A stretch of DNA of 8,430 nt, taken from the IMG/VR virus record IMGVR_UViG_2684622619_000023, one strand, 5' to 3'. Within the stretch, counting starts at the first letter, position 1, and the number at the start of each line of letters is the position of its first letter. Shown here piece by piece: positions 180 to 6,961 of the stretch. The notes under the pieces were generated by a model. The model made no database searches. It was not told the DNA's origin and worked only from the letters and a program-made list of their open reading frames with translations. The translations under genes were made by a program, and so were the position numbers. This DNA is from a virus. Its lineage: Duplodnaviria > Heunggongvirae > Uroviricota > Caudoviricetes.

Positions 180-476
180 TTATACCTCTGAATCAATATC
201 AACCTGGTGGTGAGCAATGGTTTCAACCATGTACCGGATGTGTTCTGCCATGCGCTCCTGAAACTCAACATCGTCATCAAACGCACGGGTAATGGCTTTT
301 TTGCTGGCCCCGTGGCGTTGCAAATGATCGATGCAGAGTGATTCAAACAGGTGCTGTGGAAGACCTTTTTCCATGTCGTCTGCCAGTTCTGCCTCTTTCT
401 CTTCACGGGCAATCTGCTGGTAATGACGCGCCCAGCTCTGAGCCTCAAGACGATCCTGAATGTAATAAGCGTTCAT
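180..476 (-). CDS. gam: Gam, host RecBCD nuclease inhibitor, 98-aa short (GamS-length) form
   Basis: 98-aa [101 protein letters not shown], near-identical to the recalled C-terminal 98 residues of lambda Gam. Directly upstream of bet on the same strand. In-frame upstream codons reach a TAA at 531-533 without any ATG, GTG or TTG. Confidence 0.9.
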
Positions 477-551: not shown

Positions 552-962
552 TTAGTGATTCAGGCCGTTGCCGCGTCCGTCGAGAAAAACTTCCACGAGC
601 AAATCACGGGTATAAGTGCGCTCGATGCCGCGATGCAGATAAAGCCGTCCGCGTAAATTAGCTGATGCAGTCCAGGTACCATCTTTGTGTTTGACCAGCA
701 TTCCTGGCATGACCGCACCGCGATTAACGGTCTGCGTTCCGTAATGTTGATGAACCATAAAAACTCCTGCCCGTAAGCTGGGCTGCTGAACATATAGAGA
801 CTTCTGCGCGTATTCAGGCGGTGGATGGCCGCCGGTTGTCATAACTAAGCCGCCTCGTTGAAGCGACTGAGGTATGAGGTGTTGAGTTGATTTCAGCTGG
901 TCACACCGACGTTCACGCGTCCGCTTCACCCCTCGCACTTCCCGGAGCCTGCTGAAATTCAA
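552..962 (-). CDS. Hypothetical protein, first ORF downstream of the putative PL (N/kil position); Arg-rich N-terminal segment; start codon uncertain
   Basis: Only substantial ORF between the candidate PL and gam. The track start is a TTG (RC of 960-962); alternative starts are the GTG at the GVK codons, with GGGAAG about 7 nt upstream, or the internal ATG at MTTGG. The stop (cactaa) sits at the position where the lambda kil stop lies relative to gam. N-terminal [20 protein letters not shown] resembles an arginine-rich motif. No recalled homologue; could be partly spurious. Confidence 0.3.
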
Positions 963-1029: not shown

Positions 1030-1110
1030 GAATTTATTTAAAACTATAGTTGTTTTGTCGTCAACAACAAAAGTTGTTTTATTGGTTTTTTTAGATGTAA
1101 ATGGTTGTAT
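1030..1110 (-). promoter_or_regulatory. Candidate PL promoter with OL operator-like palindromes, directing leftward transcription into the 552-962 ORF, gam and bet
   Basis: On the minus strand: -35 TTGACG (plus 1059-1064), 17-nt spacer ACAAAACAACTATAGTT, -10 TTAAAT (plus 1036-1041). This closely mirrors the PR candidate (TTGACT, spacer AAAAACAACCATAGTTT, TAATCT). GTTGTT/AACAAC half-sites at 1049-1054, 1063-1068 and 1073-1078, and AAATGGTTGT at 1098-1108, are shared with the OR region. Confidence 0.45.
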
Positions 1111-1207: not shown

Positions 1208-1234
1208 AAAAGAAAACCCGGCACGGTGGCCGGG
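1208..1234 (-). terminator. Rho-independent terminator ending the leftward cI-cassette transcript
   Basis: Minus-strand RNA reads CCCGGC-CACCGU-GCCGGG (6-bp GC stem, 6-nt loop; plus 1217-1234) followed by UUUUCUUUU (plus 1208-1216). It begins 5 nt after the stop of the ASCH gene (1239-1241). Confidence 0.7.
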
Positions 1235-1238
1235 ATTC

Positions 1239-1616
1239 TTACGCAGGTAGGTAAAGATATGATTGTGGTGGCTTAATATTACTACCTAGAGCAGAGATAG
1301 GAATTGGTTCTTTATATCTTTCCACTTCACCAATTTTTATTGCGTAGGCCTTTTCTCTACCTGAATAATATGAGTCATAAAATTGCTTAGAAATACCTGC
1401 GTGTTTTTCCGTCTTTTTCCAAAGAGATTCCGGTTCGTCACTTAGTATTGATTCAATACGGAATTGACCAACAACTTTACCTAATGGCATCGTGGCATAA
1501 ATAACAACGGTGCTAATTTGCGGATTTTTGAATATACCTTTACGAAACTCGAACCGCTTTGTTCCGTTCAATATTTTTTCTGCAAACTCAGGCTTAATGG
1601 ATAATAAAACTTTCAT
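1239..1616 (-). CDS. ASCH-domain (PUA-like fold) protein, 125 aa; second gene of the AT-rich cassette
   Basis: N-terminus MKVLLSIKPEFAEKILNGTKRFEFRKG carries the ASCH GxKxxExR signature (G-T-K-R-F-E-F-R). Size and pattern are typical of standalone ASCH proteins. Overlaps the upstream gene by 23 nt (translational coupling). AT-rich compared with the flanking phage genes. Confidence 0.8.
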   Translation of the reverse strand: MKVLLSIKPEFAEKILNGTKRFEFRKGIFKNPQISTVVIYATMPLGKVVGQFRIESILSDEPESLWKKTEKHAGISKQFYDSYYSGREKAYAIKIGEVERYKEPIPISALGSNIKPPQSYLYLPA

Positions 1617-2667
1617 TTATCTTGCCTAACTCGATGATCTTTAAGAACTGCTCATTTGTGAGTTTAAAGTGACTCCATCGGAATGCACGCGAACCATTTA
1701 GCCCCACATGATCTATTAAAATAGCACGATTGGGTCTCTTTGGCAAAGACAGATTGTATGTGAATCTTATAATGAAAGGGTATCGACGTTCTTTATAGAT
1801 TTTTCTGAGTTCATCTTCAGAAAATACGCTAAAACGAATACAATAGTCTACAAAACTATCTTCGCTTAAAAATTCAGAAATATTTTTTACGCTCTCAACT
1901 ACACATAATGTACTGGCTACAGAACGATAGCGAGCTGGCCCTTTTTTGTCTCCGGTTCTATAGATGACAATGATATCTCCTCTTTTCATTCCCATCACAG
2001 AACGCATTCCACATATGTAAATTTTATGAATGCTGTTAGCATGGGATATATCTTTGACAATATCTGGTGATTCATTTACAAGTTTTGAATCAGGGAATAG
2101 TCTAGTGTGATATTCGGGATAAATCGCCAGTAAATATTTGTTGGCTCTTGATGTCATTATTCGAGGGTAATCTAATAAAATATCACCATAAGGCTCATGC
2201 AAAGACCTCGCATATACAAACTCTTTCCCGTTATGTGTTTCTTTTTCACCATGAATGTAAAATCCGTACGTTTGGAAAAGTTTTATTAGATGGACGTGTT
2301 TGTCGAAAACAGTAACATAAATATCATCAGATTTTGATGAAAATGCATGGTCAAACGCTTTTTTTAGAAATCGTTGTCCGCGAAGGGTGCCTTTAGATTC
2401 AAATTTGAATGTTCCTATCTTTAGATGACGTCCTGGTGGGAGCGCTGGATTAATGTCATTTGCATCATCATTTTCTTTTAGATACATAAAACCTTCGATT
2501 TTATGCTTGTCATCATAGAGCACATAAGCTGATTCTCCTTCTCTGGCTTTTTTTTCTAACCAAAGAGGAAACTCTTTATAATCTTTTTTTAAAGAGTCAA
2601 AAAATGGGTCATTGTGATCAAAATCAGAGAATTTCTCATATTTTAAAGTATCCATTAAGTTCTCCAT
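1594..2667 (-). CDS. Hypothetical two-domain protein, 357 aa: N-terminal GNAT-like acyltransferase-like region, C-terminal PUA-like (EVE/ASCH-type) beta-barrel-like region; first gene of the AT-rich cassette
   Basis: Long AT-rich ORF. N-terminal half has GNAT-like strand/helix patterns (AYVLYDDKHKIEGFMYLK; HLKIGTFKF; GTLRGQRFLKKAFDHA; DDIYVTVFDKHVHLIKLFQTYGFYIHGE). C-terminal half (IYICGMRSVMGMKRGDIIVIYRTGD...YRSVASTLCVVESV) resembles PUA-like barrels. The ATG at 2667-2665 has no good SD; the in-frame ATG at 2655-2653 is preceded by GGAG at 6-nt spacing, so the true start may be 2655 (353 aa). Domain calls are by eye and tentative. Confidence 0.8.
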   Translation of the reverse strand: MENLMDTLKYEKFSDFDHNDPFFDSLKKDYKEFPLWLEKKAREGESAYVLYDDKHKIEGFMYLKENDDANDINPALPPGRHLKIGTFKFESKGTLRGQRFLKKAFDHAFSSKSDDIYVTVFDKHVHLIKLFQTYGFYIHGEKETHNGKEFVYARSLHEPYGDILLDYPRIMTSRANKYLLAIYPEYHTRLFPDSKLVNESPDIVKDISHANSIHKIYICGMRSVMGMKRGDIIVIYRTGDKKGPARYRSVASTLCVVESVKNISEFLSEDSFVDYCIRFSVFSEDELRKIYKERRYPFIIRFTYNLSLPKRPNRAILIDHVGLNGSRAFRWSHFKLTNEQFLKIIELGKINESFIIH

Positions 2668-2735: not shown

Positions 2736-3425
2736 CTATCCATGCTTCCTATACGTCTGCGGCATGCTCCCAATAACTTTCCCGAAGATAAACACCCGGT
2801 TCATCTCGTCTTTCTCGATTGGGTCCCACGGTGAGTAGCTCTTGTTATCAGAGATAACCAGCAGTTTATCCTTCATCATTTGCAGGCGCTTTACATGGGC
2901 TGTGTCGTCGTACAGAAACGCATAGATACCATCACCGTCGAAAGATTTAACCGTGATATCAACGAACAGCAGATCACCAGGTTCAATCGTTCCTGACATG
3001 CTGTCACCGCGTACGTTAATGATGCGGATATTTTCTGCCTTCCTGCCATCGAACATGTGACGAGCATCGTCAAACGAGTACTCAACCGAGCGTAGGACTT
3101 CTACAAACTCACGGTTGATGACACCCGGCCCGGCACTCACTTCTATATCAAGAACGTCAATCTTAAAGTATTTGGAATGGCTGACAGTTGGTTGTATTGG
3201 TTGCACTGTACTGTCTGACATATTTCCAACGCCAGAAGATAACCATTCTGCGCGCACACCCAAAGCGTTCGCGATCTCCACGATTTTAGTTGTTTGATTA
3301 GCTTTCCCTGTTTCGATTTTCTGAATAGCAGCTTGGCTAACCCCGACCAAATCCCCAAGCGCCTTTTGTGTAAGGCCTCGCGCTAATCTGGCTTCTTTAA
3401 GTCTTTCTGAGAGTGTTGTTTTCAT
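2736..3425 (-). CDS. cI: Phage CI-type repressor (XRE-family HTH N-domain + LexA-like S24 peptidase C-domain)
   Basis: 229-aa ORF. N-terminal HTH (LTQKALGDLVGVSQAAIQKIETGK). C-terminal S24 autopeptidase features (GDSMSGTIEPGDLLFVD with catalytic Ser; downstream HVKRL Lys). Divergently oriented from cro across an operator-rich intergenic region. Not lambda-cI-like in sequence, i.e. a different immunity type. Confidence 0.88.
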   Translation of the reverse strand: MKTTLSERLKEARLARGLTQKALGDLVGVSQAAIQKIETGKANQTTKIVEIANALGVRAEWLSSGVGNMSDSTVQPIQPTVSHSKYFKIDVLDIEVSAGPGVINREFVEVLRSVEYSFDDARHMFDGRKAENIRIINVRGDSMSGTIEPGDLLFVDITVKSFDGDGIYAFLYDDTAHVKRLQMMKDKLLVISDNKSYSPWDPIEKDEMNRVFIFGKVIGSMPQTYRKHG

Positions 3426-3529
3426 AGTTCAAATGTACAACCAAGGTTTTATTCCATCAAACGAAAATGGTTGTTGACTAAAAACAACCATAGTTTTAAT
3501 CTTGATTCAAATTAACCACGGAGGTTGTT
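3426..3529. promoter_or_regulatory. Immunity control region: OR operators with divergent PR (rightward to cro) and PRM (leftward to cI) candidates
   Basis: PR: TTGACT 3474-3479, 17-nt spacer, TAATCT 3497-3502, then GGAGG 3520-3524 and cro ATG at 3530. Perfect 9/9 inverted repeat ATGGTTGTT (3467-3475) / AACAACCAT (3483-3491) overlaps the PR -35. Additional half-sites ACAACCA at 3437-3443 and GGTTGTT at 3523-3529. PRM candidate on the minus strand: TTGATG, 17 nt, TACATT, ending about 6 nt before the cI ATG, so cI mRNA may be leaderless as in lambda. Confidence 0.6.
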
Positions 3530-3760
3530 ATGAACCCAGCTATTAAAACAGCGATCAATATCGTTGGTTCACAAAAGAAACTGGGCGCTGCTTGCGAAGT
3601 TTCACAGCAGGCCGTCTATAAGTGGCTTCACAACAAAGCAAAGGTATCCCCTGAACATGTCGGCAGCATTGTTACGGCTACTGGTGGAGTAGTGAAGGCA
3701 CACCAGATTCGCCCGGATCTTCCGAAGTTGTTTCCACACACCGAAAAGAACGCAGCTTAA
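3530..3760 (+). CDS. cro: Cro-like repressor, YdaS-type HTH regulator
   Basis: 76-aa ORF directly downstream of the PR candidate with a GGAGG RBS. HTH-like segment KKLGAACEVSQQAVYKWLHNK. Position and size as for cro; sequence resembles Rac-type YdaS/Cro regulators rather than lambda Cro (from memory). Confidence 0.8.
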   Translation: MNPAIKTAINIVGSQKKLGAACEVSQQAVYKWLHNKAKVSPEHVGSIVTATGGVVKAHQIRPDLPKLFPHTEKNAA

Positions 3761-3772
3761 ATTTCCATTTCA

Positions 3773-3785
3773 CGCTCTTTAACAA
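3773..3785 (+). promoter_or_regulatory. boxA-like element in the nutR position
   Basis: CGCTCTTTAACAA lies 13 nt after the cro stop. It matches the boxA consensus (lambda nut boxA CGCTCTTA; rrn boxA GCTCTTTAACAA). No convincing GC-rich boxB hairpin follows. Confidence 0.4.
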
Positions 3786-3829
3786 TAAGCAATCAACTTA
3801 ACAGTCAATTCAAACTAAAGGAGTCAATT

Positions 3830-4369
3830 ATGCAACCACTTACATACCAACAGACTAGCGGATTTAGCCCGACTGCGGTGATAAATCGTTCTCAAACAAA
3901 ACAGGTGCCAGGCCACGAAAAAATCCGTGATGCCGTCCGCGCCTGGTCGGCTGAAGATAATCAGGATGTCGTTGCCACACTCATTGTGAATGAGTATCGG
4001 GAGCAGGGCGGCGGCACCATCGATTTCCCTGATGATGTCAGCCGTGCACGCCAGAAGCTGTTCCGCTTCCTCGATAACAAATTCGATTCTGAAAAATACC
4101 GAAATAACGTGCGTGAACTGACCCCGGCAATTCTGGCGGTACTACCGCTGGAATATCGCGGTTACCTGGTTGAGCAGGATAGCTTTATGGCTAGGTTGGC
4201 TGAAATGGAAAAGGAACTCAGTGAGGCAAAACAGGCTGTCATTCTCAACGCACCACGCCACCAGAAACTGAAGGAAATTAGTGAAGGTATTGTGTCGATG
4301 TTTCGTGTGGACCCAGATCTGGCTGGTCCACTGATGGCGATGGTCACCACCATGCTGGGGGCAATATGA
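3830..4369 (+). CDS. YdaT-like protein occupying the cII position (function uncertain; regulator or toxin-like)
   Basis: 179-aa ORF with AAGGAG RBS 7 nt upstream. Motifs EYREQGGGTIDFP and LTPAILAVLPLEYR resemble what I recall of the Rac prophage YdaT family, which follows ydaS-type cro genes. Stop overlaps a downstream ATG (ATGA at 4366-4369). Confidence 0.6.
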   Translation: MQPLTYQQTSGFSPTAVINRSQTKQVPGHEKIRDAVRAWSAEDNQDVVATLIVNEYREQGGGTIDFPDDVSRARQKLFRFLDNKFDSEKYRNNVRELTPAILAVLPLEYRGYLVEQDSFMARLAEMEKELSEAKQAVILNAPRHQKLKEISEGIVSMFRVDPDLAGPLMAMVTTMLGAI

Positions 4370-4455
4370 CAGGTTCAGAAATGGCGAAAGCCGGTCTGCT
4401 GGAACAGAACCGACTTTCAGGTGCAAATCGTAACGCACTCATTGCGGGAGGAATT

Positions 4456-5320
4456 ATGGCAAACACTGCTGAGATATTCAATTTTCCAGTGCCGGATGTG
4501 GCACAAAAGGAGCCGCGCGTGGCAGATCTCGATGATGGTTATACGCGCATTGCAAATGAGTTGCTGGAAGCTGTGATGCTGGCCGGATTAACACAGCACC
4601 AGCTTCTGGTCTTCCTGGCTGTCATGCGCAAAACATATGGCTTTAATAAAAAACTGGATTGGGTGAGCAACGAGCAACTTTCCGAATTGACCGGGATATT
4701 GCCGCACAAGTGTTCTGCTGCAAAAAGCGTTCTGGTAAAGCGTGGGATTCTTATTCAGAGCGGGCGGAATACCGGCATTAATAATGTGGTCAGTGAATGG
4801 TCAACATTACCCGAATCAGGTAAGAAAAATAAAGTTTACCTGAAAGAGGTAAATTTACCTGAATCAGGTAAAAAAAGTTTACCCAAATCAGGTAAAGACG
4901 TTTACCCGAATCAGGTAAACACAAAAGACAAAATAACAAAAGACAATATAAAACCTTATTCGTCCGAGAATTCTGGCGAATCCTCTGACCAGCCAGAAAA
5001 CGACCTTCCTGTGGTGAAACCGGATGCTGCGATTCAGAGCGGCAGCAAGTGGGGGACAGCAGAAGACCTGACCGCCGCAGAGTGGATGTTTGANNNNNNN
5101 NNNNNNNNNNNNNNNNNNNNNNNNNNNNNNNNNNNNNNNNNNNTTCCGCTGGGCATGCCAGGACAACTTCTGGTCCGGTAACGTGCTAAGTCCGGCCAAA
5201 CTCCGTGACAAGTGGACCCAACTCGAAATCAACCGTAACAAGCAACAGGCTGGAGTGACAGCCGGAAAATCAAAACTGGACCTGACAAACACTGACTGGA
5301 TTTATGGGGTGGATTTATGA
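4456..5320 (+). CDS. O: Replication initiator protein O (lambda O-like); reading frame interrupted by a 50-nt run of N (5094-5143)
   Basis: ATG at 4456 with GGGAGG 5 nt upstream; N-terminus MANTAEIFNFPVPDVAQKEPRVADLDDGYTRIANELLEA parallels lambda O MTNTAKILNF...VADLDDGYARLSN. After the gap, the frame ending at 5320 gives ...FWSGNVLSPAKLRDKWTQLEINRNKQQAGVTAGKSKLDLTNTDWIYGVDL, matching the lambda O C-terminus. The in-frame ATG at 4366 is an alternative but less likely start. Confidence 0.88.
4807..4956. repeat. Origin of replication (ori-lambda-like) inside the O gene: five 17-bp iterons plus an AT-rich region
   Basis: Iterons TTACC(C/T)(G/A)AA(T/A)(C/G)AGGTAA at 4807-4823, 4836-4852 (degenerate), 4855-4871, 4879-4895 and 4902-4918, each with inverted ends TTACC/GGTAA. 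Followed by the A-rich stretch ACAAAAGACAAAATAACAAAAGACAATATAAAA (4920-4956). Same organisation as lambda ori within the O linker. Confidence 0.8.
5094..5143. other. Run of 50 N (assembly gap or masked bases) inside gene O
   Basis: Directly visible. The O reading frames before and after the run differ by one position, so 50 is not the true missing length. Confidence 0.99.
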
Positions 5321-6018
5321 AAAACATCGCCGCACAAATGGTTAACTTTGACTGTGAGCAGATGCGCCGGATCGCCAACAACATGCCGGAACAGTACGAC
5401 GAAAAGCCACAGGTACAGCAGGTAGCGCAGATCATCAACGGTGTGTTCAGGCAGTTACTGGCAACTTTCCCGGCGAGCCTGGCTAACCGTGACCAGAATG
5501 AACTGAACGAAATCCGCCGCCAGTGGGTTCTGGCTTTCCGGGAAAACGGGATCACCACAATGGAACAGGTTAACGCAGGAATGCGCGTAGCCCGTCGGCA
5601 GAATCGACCATTTCTGCCATCACCCGGGCAGTTTGTTGCATGGTGCCGGGAAGAAGCATCCGTTATCGCCGGACTGCCAAACGTCAGCGAGCTGGTTGAT
5701 ATGGTTTACGAGTATTGCCGGAAGCGTGGCCTGTATCCGGATGCAGAGTCTTATCCGTGGAAATCGAACGCGCATTACTGGTTGGTTACCAACTTGTACC
5801 AGAACATGCGGGCCAATGCGCTGACTGACGCGGAATTACGGCGCAAGGCTGCCGATGAACTGACCTGTATGACAGCGCGAATTAACCGTGGTGAGACGAT
5901 ACCTGAACCAGTAAAACAACTTCCTGTTATGGGCGGTAGACCTCTAAATCGTGCACAGGCTCTGGCGAAGATCGCAGAAATTAAAGCTAAGTTCGGACTG
6001 AAAGGAGCAAGTGTATGA
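5317..6018 (+). CDS. P: Replication protein P (DnaB helicase loader), lambda P-like
   Basis: 233-aa ORF MKNIAAQMVNFDCEQMRRIANNMPEQYDEKPQVQQVAQIING...KFGLKGASV, near-identical to my recollection of lambda P. ATG overlaps the O stop (ATGA at 5317-5320). Confidence 0.95.
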   Translation: MKNIAAQMVNFDCEQMRRIANNMPEQYDEKPQVQQVAQIINGVFRQLLATFPASLANRDQNELNEIRRQWVLAFRENGITTMEQVNAGMRVARRQNRPFLPSPGQFVAWCREEASVIAGLPNVSELVDMVYEYCRKRGLYPDAESYPWKSNAHYWLVTNLYQNMRANALTDAELRRKAADELTCMTARINRGETIPEPVKQLPVMGGRPLNRAQALAKIAEIKAKFGLKGASV

Positions 6019-6317: not shown

Positions 6318-6334
6318 TGAAACAGGTGAGTTGA

Positions 6335-6369
6335 GTTCAAACTGTAGTACAATTCTCTCCAGTTTGAAC
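6335..6369. repeat. Perfect 10-bp inverted repeat GTTCAAACTG (15-nt spacer) CAGTTTGAAC between ren and emrE
   Basis: Arms at 6335-6344 and 6360-6369 are exact reverse complements. Ends 1 nt before the emrE RBS (AGGAAAG, 6370-6376). Confidence 0.6.
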
Positions 6370-6384
6370 AGGAAAGAATATGTT

Positions 6385-6717
6385 ATGAACCCTTATATTT
6401 ATCTTGGTGGTGCAATACTTGCAGAGGTCATTGGTACAACCTTAATGAAGTTTTCAGAAGGTTTTACACGGTTATGGCCATCTGTTGGTACAATTATTTG
6501 TTATTGTGCATCATTCTGGTTATTAGCTCAGACGCTGGCTTATATTCCTACAGGGATTGCTTATGCTATCTGGTCAGGAGTCGGTATTGTCCTGATTAGC
6601 TTACTATCATGGGGGTTTTTCGGCCAACGGCTGGACCTGCCAGCCGTTATAGGCATGATGTTGATTTGTGCCGGTGTGTTGGTTATTAATTTATTGTCAC
6701 GAAGCACACCACATTAA
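6385..6717 (+). CDS. emrE: EmrE, small multidrug resistance (SMR) family efflux transporter, 110 aa
   Basis: From the ATG at 6385 (RBS AGGAAAG 6370-6376): MNPYIYLGGAILAEVIGTTLMKFSEGFTRLWPSVGTIICYCASFWLLAQTLAYIPTGIAYAIWSGVGIVLISLLSWGFFGQRLDLPAVIGMMLICAGVLVINLLSRSTPH, essentially the E. coli EmrE sequence as I recall it; four hydrophobic helices. The 18-codon upstream extension in the track (from 6331) is rejected. Confidence 0.95.
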   Translation: MNPYIYLGGAILAEVIGTTLMKFSEGFTRLWPSVGTIICYCASFWLLAQTLAYIPTGIAYAIWSGVGIVLISLLSWGFFGQRLDLPAVIGMMLICAGVLVINLLSRSTPH

Positions 6718-6747
6718 AAATAATTTCTTTTAAAAGACTGCAATATG

Positions 6748-6780
6748 GCGGTTCATATCTTTACATGGGCCGCTTTTGTT
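6748..6780 (+). terminator. Candidate intrinsic terminator downstream of emrE
   Basis: Stem GCGGTTCAT (6748-6756) / ATGGGCCGC (6765-6773), 9 bp including two G-U pairs, 8-nt loop, followed by TTTTGTT (6774-6780). Confidence 0.45.
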
Positions 6781-6961
6781 AATGTTTTTAGTTTTTGTGT
6801 ATTCTTTTGTGCCTTCAAGATTATTGCGTAAGCAAATTGCAATACGATTATTGTTGTATATTCAAGATAGTGTGATCGTAATTGTCTTTTTAAATAAAAA
6901 TTAAACAAAAATTATATCTCACCACTAAGGTTTATAAAAGCATAAGTTAGCAGGTGTCACC

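Follow-up and report, generated by a model that had tools for sequence, protein, structure and literature searches.

We found that two overlapping minus-strand genes in a window of 8,430 nucleotides from a Caudoviricetes virus (IMG/VR record IMGVR_UViG_2684622619_000023; the window is the whole stretch of DNA that was analysed) form an autonomous mobile cassette with a patchy distribution, which in this phage lies within the immunity region, directly downstream of the cI-type repressor gene. Gene A encodes a fusion of a GNAT acyltransferase domain with a PUA-like β-barrel, and gene B encodes a small ASCH-domain partner. We propose, giving the idea an even chance of being right, that the pair acts as a toxin–antitoxin-like anti-phage or exclusion cassette, in which A would acylate an RNA-linked amine and B would neutralise A. 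The GNAT–PUA plus ASCH module is not new: its family has been described computationally and named in databases. An initial annotation of the window, made from the letters alone, read the architecture of A correctly but overlooked gene B, the location within the immunity region and the earlier descriptions of the module.

The cassette and its domains are laid out as follows:

1594..2655, minus strand: gene A, 353-aa GNAT–PUA-like fusion protein (open reading frame, GGAG, PDC-M11A, phrog_6345, RefSeq)
2191..2655, minus strand: GNAT acyl-coenzyme A (CoA) N-acyltransferase domain of A, residues ~1-155
1597..2163, minus strand: PUA-like (ASCH/EVE-type) β-barrel domain of A, residues ~165-353, isoelectric point (pI) 9.7
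1239..1616, minus strand: gene B, 125-aa ASCH-domain partner (Pfam ASCH, PDC-M11B, ZmASCH alignment)

Reading frames and family membership

The initial annotation had claimed an open reading frame at 1594-2667, and this frame is uninterrupted on the minus strand and real. Judged by the large family that phmmer retrieved with the gene A protein (with 50% clustering, 1421 representatives at E<=1e-3, of which 868 reach E<=1e-10), it is no chance reading frame. Two start codons are candidates, an ATG at 2667 that yields 357 aa and a second ATG at 2655 that yields 353 aa. The second is the likelier start, because GGAG lies at 2662-2665, 6 nt 5' of it, because the homologues, nearly all of 350-357 aa, begin their alignments at its Met, and because RefSeq WP_000380252.1 gives the gene at the same coordinates with a 353-aa product; the longer 357-aa form appears in GenBank PV340567.1. 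The protein matches phrog_6345 at 1e-186, and many NCBI records name it 'N-acetyltransferase'. Gene B overlaps the 3' end of gene A by 23 nt.

Both PADLOC models of the PDC-M11 system, in a collection whose PDC entries are defence candidates only, matched the two adjacent genes: PDC-M11A covered residues 6-356 of 357 in A (2.1e-133) and PDC-M11B residues 1-123 in B (6.8e-52), which places the pair in the PDC-M11, or (PIN)-GNAT-EVE + ASCH, family. The '(PIN)-GNAT-EVE' architecture was described by Bell, Wolf and Koonin (BMC Biol 2020, PMC7641849), and the GNAT plus PUA-like fusion agrees with that published class. According to these authors, nearly all operons of the (PIN)-GNAT-EVE type carry an ASCH protein and frequently an AAA_17 ATPase, the PIN-less GNAT-EVE form is common in beta- and gamma-proteobacterial prophages, and none of the components had been characterised at that time; they favour a toxin–antitoxin role for the operons, and they credit the first description, together with a proposal of DNA-base acetylation, to Iyer et al. 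(NAR 2013). Proteins 100% identical to A and B are labelled 'GevT toxin' and 'GevA antitoxin' in the record of phage PhiR47_2 (PV340567.1). We found no paper using the names GevT/GevA, and the name PhiR47 led only to a study with related phages as a test panel. With the family known under these three names, the window pair shares the domain order, the adjacent ASCH gene and the location in a gamma-proteobacterial prophage.

Predicted folds of the gene A protein

An AlphaFold2 model of the gene A protein, built from 67 diverse homologues (predicted local distance difference test score, pLDDT, 93.2; predicted template-modelling score, pTM, 0.90), contains all the strands and helices that the initial annotation had named. 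SAYVLY forms a strand at residues 42-47, HLKIGTFKF a strand at residues 77-85, RGQRFLKKAFDHAFS a helix at residues 92-106, and VHLIKLFQT a helix at 121-129, which is followed by strands at 133-140 and 143-151 in the canonical GNAT order. The N-terminal domain has the mixed alpha/beta succession b1-a1-a2-b2-b3-b4-a3-b5-a4-b6-b7 of the GNAT fold. Using Foldseek, we matched the model to many solved GNATs, among them PaiA (1tiq, E 1.2e-6), and the family sequence profile matched PaiA as well (E 2.8e-4). Furthermore, the PHROG 'acetyltransferase' profile aligned with residues 8-151 (4e-24), and the homologues P0124 and P0142 exceed the cut-off of Pfam Acetyltransf_1. Searches against PDB sequences, run with the single sequence and with the profile, retrieved GNATs that matched just the N-terminal half, and the barrel gave no match. 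The fold-search outputs came without aligned query residues; aligned lengths, secondary-structure order and sequence hits such as the PHROG match at residues 8-151 served to place the GNAT hits in the N-terminal half and the PUA-like ones in the C-terminal half. The GNAT call of the initial annotation is hence borne out by the model, by Foldseek, by the family profile and by PHROG.

The GNAT core of A is strongly conserved. The motif A loop of A reads G89-T-L-R-G93-Q-R95, and only the last Gly (G93) aligns with the QxxGxG of PaiA; across the family G93 is invariant and R95 is present in 97%. Invariant or nearly so are K79, G81, T82 and K84 on strand 4, T90, G93 and R95 in the loop expected to bind the pyrophosphate of CoA, Y113, T115 and F117 on strand 5, and also G131, F132 and E145. 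One could read such a domain as an ordinary acetyltransferase carried as phage cargo, acting on a small molecule or protein (a polyamine or an antibiotic) and fused to a barrel that plays no part in nucleic-acid binding, since the top GNAT matches by sequence and by Foldseek are PaiA and spermidine/spermine acetyltransferases. These matches are weak, though (E 1e-2 to 3e-4), and reflect a shared fold, and an ordinary metabolic enzyme would leave the barrel fusion, the ASCH pairing in 80/80 related loci and the PIN and TIR fusions (see below) unexplained. We consider this explanation very improbable.

The second domain of A is a barrel of the PUA-like kind. In the AlphaFold2 model GDIIVIYR, SVASTLCVVESV and FIIRFTYNL are strands of a C-terminal β-barrel with five to six strands and a helix after strand 1, and the top structural match of this barrel in Foldseek was the Zymomonas mobilis protein ZmASCH (E 1.9e-5). 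The EVE/ASCH-type call of the initial annotation thereby withstood structure prediction and two independent fold searches. Neither Pfam EVE (PF01878) nor Pfam ASCH (PF04266) matched the window protein, and the EVE model matched weakly in 3/43 longer homologues (best E 0.0018). We looked in the barrel for the ASCH octapeptide GxKxx(E/T)xR and found it absent, the corresponding segment being a conserved F-P-D-S-x-L; because this catalytic octapeptide is missing, the barrel is more likely to be a reader or docking module than an ASCH-type hydrolase. It carries a polar cluster that is invariant or nearly so (H183, D189, S190, D202, N207, S208, K211, D227, Y232 and R233). We also considered that the barrel might be a recent duplicate of gene B and rejected this, as hhalign against the ASCH partner family covered only 21 columns at 20% probability, confined to the first strand and helix, an overlap that does not establish homology at the sequence level.

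Putative active site of the ASCH partner

Gene B belongs to the 'GKER' or TRIP4-like clade of ASCH proteins. It matches Pfam ASCH PF04266 above the cut-off (2.5e-8), it carries the motif GxKxxExR as G18-T-K20-R-F-E23-F-R25, and it has a serine, S6, near its N-terminus. Its closest solved relative is ZmASCH (PDB 5guq/5gus), with a full-length alignment at 8e-16. All 77 homologues examined have the same residue at S6, K20, E23, R25, Y40, W66 and Y83, and conservation reaches 99% at Q118 and S119 and 96% at G18; the protein has a pI of 9.55. K20 and E23 occupy the positions of the Lys/Glu catalytic dyad of ASCH N4-acetylcytidine (ac4C) deacetylases: GKER-type ASCH proteins, including ZmASCH, were reported to remove ac4C from tRNA, with the Lys and Glu being essential (preprint 10.64898/2026.02.27.708502), and E. 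coli (Escherichia coli) YqfB is described as an ac4C amidohydrolase (PMC6972931).

ZmASCH was furthermore found to bind nucleic acid and to cleave single-stranded RNA only, weakly and in a Mg-dependent manner, through Tyr47 and Ser128 (PMC5615036). These residues align with Y40 and S119 of B, which are kept in 99-100% of homologues. The conservation of this key Tyr and Ser allows for a different assignment of roles, in which B would be a ZmASCH-type single-stranded RNase effector while A would sense modified phage nucleic acid and control B, for example by acetylation. The additions of effector-type PIN and TIR domains to the GNAT–PUA scaffold in longer homologues, typical of sensor–effector fusions, fit such an arrangement. 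Against it stand the description of the ZmASCH RNase activity as weak, the invariant K/E/R motif of B, which fits an amidohydrolase site, the strong conservation of the GNAT core of A, as for an enzyme and not a pure sensor, and the label in PV340567.1, which makes A the toxin and B the antitoxin. We regard B as the effector as unlikely, and favour its assignment as the partner that restrains A.

The ZmASCH gene itself (ZMO0922; positions 5001-5447 in our loci L083-L085) matches PDC-M11B at E 9e-28. We rejected an origin in a GNAT-EVE operon, which would have let its biochemistry carry over directly to B, as the 375-aa upstream neighbour is unrelated to gene A and has no PADLOC match. ZmASCH is a solo gene in Zymomonas, and it could be an orphan 'antitoxin'.

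Obligate pairing and spread of the two genes

Upon collecting related loci with closer gene A sequences (80 loci from 80 species, covering Proteobacteria, Bacteroidota, Firmicutes, Acidobacteria, Verrucomicrobia and others), we found an ASCH partner in 80/80, and in 75 of them it is the next gene downstream, on the same strand. The commonest overlap between the two genes was 23 nt, the same as in the window. No third universal gene was found across the 80 loci, A and B alone being common to all, and the flanks were heterogeneous, with integrases, repressors, resolvases and known defence genes. The pair thus shows the pattern of an autonomous mobile cassette, A and B occurring together among flanking genes that are otherwise unrelated. 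An intact pair at an identity of at least 99% was present in about 275/5426 complete E. coli genomes.

Several accessory genes recur beside the pair. A gene for an AAA_17 P-loop protein accompanies it in 15/80 loci, an extra stand-alone GNAT of ~170 aa lies just 3' of the ASCH gene in 6/80, and a ~380-aa protein without a Pfam match is encoded just 5' of gene A in 10/80 (examples of accessory genes are at 6435-6935 and 8473-9428 in locus L081 and at 3835-4974 in locus L010). L081 also holds a second, diverged ASCH copy.

Among 43 longer homologues of A, the same polypeptide contains an ASCH domain in 13, a PIN domain in about 11 and a TIR domain in one, with PIN and TIR fused at the N-terminus. 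The homologues P0124, P0169, P0186 and P0202 exemplify N-terminal TIR or PIN domains and the fusion of ASCH at either end; P0186 has the order PIN-GNAT-barrel-ASCH, and homologues of ~620 aa begin with ASCH, followed by ~160 uncharacterised residues and then the GNAT domain. Distant relatives of A (H24-H31 in the phage collection) occur in Salmonella phage SopEPhi, Lactobacillus prophage Lj965 and a Lacticaseibacillus phage, and Methanothermobacter phage psiM100 carries one with 27% identity in its 'inserted fragment IFa'; the cassette therefore moves in viruses of both bacteria and archaea.

Some neighbours in the related loci are components of type I or type III restriction–modification (R-M), which bears on the proposal attributed to Iyer et al. 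2013 in PMC7641849. In an R-M-like scheme, A would acetylate a base of host or phage DNA, as an epigenetic mark or as damage, and B would read or remove the mark. PIN-GNAT-EVE operons were reported to adjoin type I R-M, and some of their ASCH partners are fused to HsdS or to helix-turn-helix domains (PMC7641849). It is for operons with PIN, and not for the prophage form, that this R-M association was reported (PMC7641849), and the two-gene prophage form, being without a nuclease, cannot restrict unmarked DNA. Moreover, the effector fused in relatives is PIN, typically an RNase, and among solved structures the nearest relative of B and the barrel alike is ZmASCH, which cleaves single-stranded RNA only and acts on ac4C in tRNA. 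DNA-base acetylation hence seems unlikely to us, even as the strongest of the alternatives, and an RNA-linked amine remains our preferred target of A.

Position in the prophage immunity region

A 1.7-kb segment around the pair is 100% identical to many E. coli O157:H7 chromosomes (e.g., EC4115 and TW14359), and in EC4115 the pair lies inside a lambdoid prophage integrated beside mlrA. The same layout, with identical genes, occurs in the free-living lambda-like phages 4A7, 4C10, D2, 1W, 3W, IdasGreatGrand and PhiR47_2. The surrounding features of the window are:

180-476, minus strand: gam
552-758, minus strand: kil-like gene
759-1238: 480-bp gap between the kil-like gene and gene B
1049..1068, minus strand: operator-like palindrome, copy 2, GTTGTTGACGACAAAACAAC, 3' of gene B and facing kil/gam; left immunity boundary
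1217..1234, minus strand: strong intrinsic-terminator-like hairpin CCCGGC…GCCGGG, then TTTTCTTTT, a few bases after the gene B stop
2736..3425, minus strand: cI-type repressor with helix-turn-helix (HTH) and S24 peptidase domains (Pfam Peptidase_S24 1.2e-18, HTH_3 5.5e-13)
3470..3488, plus strand: operator-like palindrome with embedded TTGAC, between cI and cro; right immunity boundary

The repressor gene, named cI in PV340567.1 and 'CI-like repressor' in phage 4A7, is followed on the same strand, after 80 nt, directly by gene A, and no terminator-like site was found between the two. On the plus strand the order is cro/YdaS-like, cII/YdaT-like, O, P, ren and emrE-like. The two palindromes follow the pattern GTTGTTGAC(N1-2)AAAACAAC, each embedding a TTGAC hexamer that resembles a -35 element, and a search for this pattern gave two matches compared to none expected in 200 shuffles. 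Going by sequence and placement, they are probably the right and left operator–promoter regions (OR/PR and OL/PL) of the window phage. As the palindromes bracket cI, A and B, the pair lies inside the immunity region. Its G+C content is 33-37% over genes A and B, compared to 44-53% in the flanks.

In phage lambda, rexA and rexB fill the slot immediately 3' of cI and are exclusion genes expressed in the lysogen. Because A and B occupy the equivalent slot, on the same strand and within the immunity region, they are probably expressed in the lysogen as well, by analogy. The likeness ends at position and expected expression: RexAB is a membrane-depolarising exclusion system, and its components have no sequence or fold relation to A and B.

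The presence of the module in functional temperate phages can also be viewed from the side of the phage. Bell et al. suggested a counter-defence role for the prophage GNAT-EVE form (PMC7641849), and the GNAT–PUA protein might serve the phage in host take-over or against host systems such as restriction or tRNA-targeting defences. Yet the position on the cI strand of the immunity region, with its own terminator, corresponds to a lysogen-expressed exclusion slot and not to an early lytic one, the same cassette recurs in many non-prophage contexts beside defence genes, and PADLOC lists it as a defence candidate. We judge counter-defence improbable, and a role in excluding other phages from the lysogen accords better with this location.

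Other features of the region were noted as well. The cro and cII slots (3530-4369, plus strand) hold YdaS-like (Pfam 1.7e-16) and YdaT-like (9.5e-30) genes; Pfam calls these families 'toxins', while in the window they occupy lambda regulatory slots. No N-like antiterminator frame is annotated in the gap at 759-1238. Downstream of the replication genes, ren and a gene for an EmrE-type small multidrug resistance transporter (6331-6717, plus strand) constitute further prophage cargo. A run of 50 N at 5094-5143 lies inside replication gene O and breaks its frame in the six-frame listing; in EC4115 O is intact at 1020 nt, and IS1203 interrupts P, a gene that is unbroken in the window.

Proposed model for the action of A and B

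From the folds, residues and gene arrangement described above we infer what A does and to which substrate, that it is toxic, that B acts as an eraser, and what would trigger the system. First, the basic PUA-like barrel of A would dock onto nucleic acid, with tRNA or some other single-stranded RNA as the likeliest ligand. The GNAT domain would then move an acyl group from acyl-CoA to an amine, either the N4 of cytidine or the alpha-amine of an aminoacyl-tRNA, and either modification would be expected to block translation. B, with its intact Ser/Lys/Glu/Arg site, would bind the same kind of substrate and neutralise A. Hydrolysis of the amide formed by A (a writer/eraser arrangement) is the likeliest route, with binding to A as the alternative. 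The balance between A and B would finally be upset when another phage infects, such that translation stops in the infected cell. The initial annotation had suggested that A acylates nucleic-acid-associated targets in the manner of GNAT toxins, and a nucleic-acid-directed acyltransferase function of this kind is plausible and accords with earlier published predictions and with the 'GevT toxin' label on an identical protein. The more specific form of the model, in which the pair constitutes a reversible nucleic-acid acetylation switch for abortive infection with A as a PUA-guided writer and B as an ASCH eraser, is a tentative possibility that we hold well below the general toxin–antitoxin proposal.

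Three further known systems help to place the pair. With the TacT/AtaT/KacT/ItaT toxins, which acetylate aminoacyl-tRNA, it shares the GNAT fold, an arrangement as two overlapping genes in a cassette and a presence on mobile elements, and a tRNA-linked amine is also a plausible target of A. Those toxins, however, are single-domain proteins of ~160-175 aa with an upstream RHH (ribbon-helix-helix)/DUF1778 antitoxin that binds the toxin, whereas here the toxin gene would come first, A carries an extra 190-aa barrel and the downstream partner is an enzyme-like ASCH protein; Pfam and NCBIfam profiles of the TacT/AtaT-type families did not match gene A, which places it outside them. DarT/DarG resembles the proposed logic of A and B in combining a nucleic-acid writer with a downstream overlapping eraser in abortive infection, but its folds and chemistry differ (DNA ADP-ribosylation and a macrodomain antitoxin), and the eraser activity of B is putative. 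TmcA/NAT10 and YqfB-type ASCH proteins offer the parallel of an acetyltransferase paired with an ASCH amidohydrolase, and a 2026 preprint notes that ASCH genes and genes for NAT10/Kre33-like acetyltransferases are linked in operons. The Lys/Glu site of 'GKER' ASCH deacetylases is retained in B, which falls in the ZmASCH/TRIP4-like clade and not in the YqfB (GKTR) clade. We found no RecD-like helicase/ATPase, TmcA-type GNAT or tRNA-binding domain in A, which at 353 aa is also too short for the additional domains of TmcA/NAT10, and A is thus no member of that family.

A number of observations weigh against the toxin–antitoxin proposal or its enzymatic premise. Pfam returned no match at E<=1 for the window protein of gene A and NCBIfam gave GNAT matches below threshold only, and because these scans were empty or sub-threshold the domain calls were drawn from structure. 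The motif A consensus Q/RxxGxG/A is degenerate, with G93 alone retained, and in our reading of the alignment Phe127 stands where the Tyr of motif B is usual; catalytic competence of the GNAT domain is therefore not assured. On the side of the eraser, EOLA1 was reported to act on ac4C solely in its free form and to have no activity on intact cellular RNA (preprint 10.64898/2026.08.01.741249), and RNA deacetylation by ASCH proteins in cells is disputed. The fused homologues raise a further difficulty, as a toxin and its own eraser in one polypeptide sit awkwardly with a simple writer/eraser pair, and, given the fusions to PIN and TIR, GNAT–PUA could serve as a sensor or regulator instead of the effector. 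The 'toxin' and 'antitoxin' labels in PV340567.1 are an unreferenced database annotation, the searchable literature yielded no experimental study of PDC-M11, GNAT-EVE or GevT/GevA, and we infer expression from the cI promoter solely from the gene layout. Ranking the alternatives by weight, we place DNA-base acetylation first, followed by B as an RNase effector, counter-defence and, last, a metabolic acetyltransferase; the toxin–antitoxin-like exclusion cassette stays our preferred reading at the even chance stated at the outset.

Implications for the family and its hosts

The module is common in E. coli, it reaches across many bacterial phyla and into an archaeal virus, and in O157:H7 it occupies a prime slot that is probably expressed in the lysogen. 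The reported ac4C amidohydrolase activity of ASCH proteins makes the hypothesis of an acetyl writer paired with an acetyl eraser directly testable. If that hypothesis holds true, nucleic-acid acetylation would join the chemistries of phage defence, and the plating of therapeutic or diagnostic phages on prophage-bearing O157:H7 strains would be affected. The acetylation switch would then be the acetyl counterpart of DarT/DarG, and it would provide the first defined physiological role of ASCH deacetylases in bacterial immunity.

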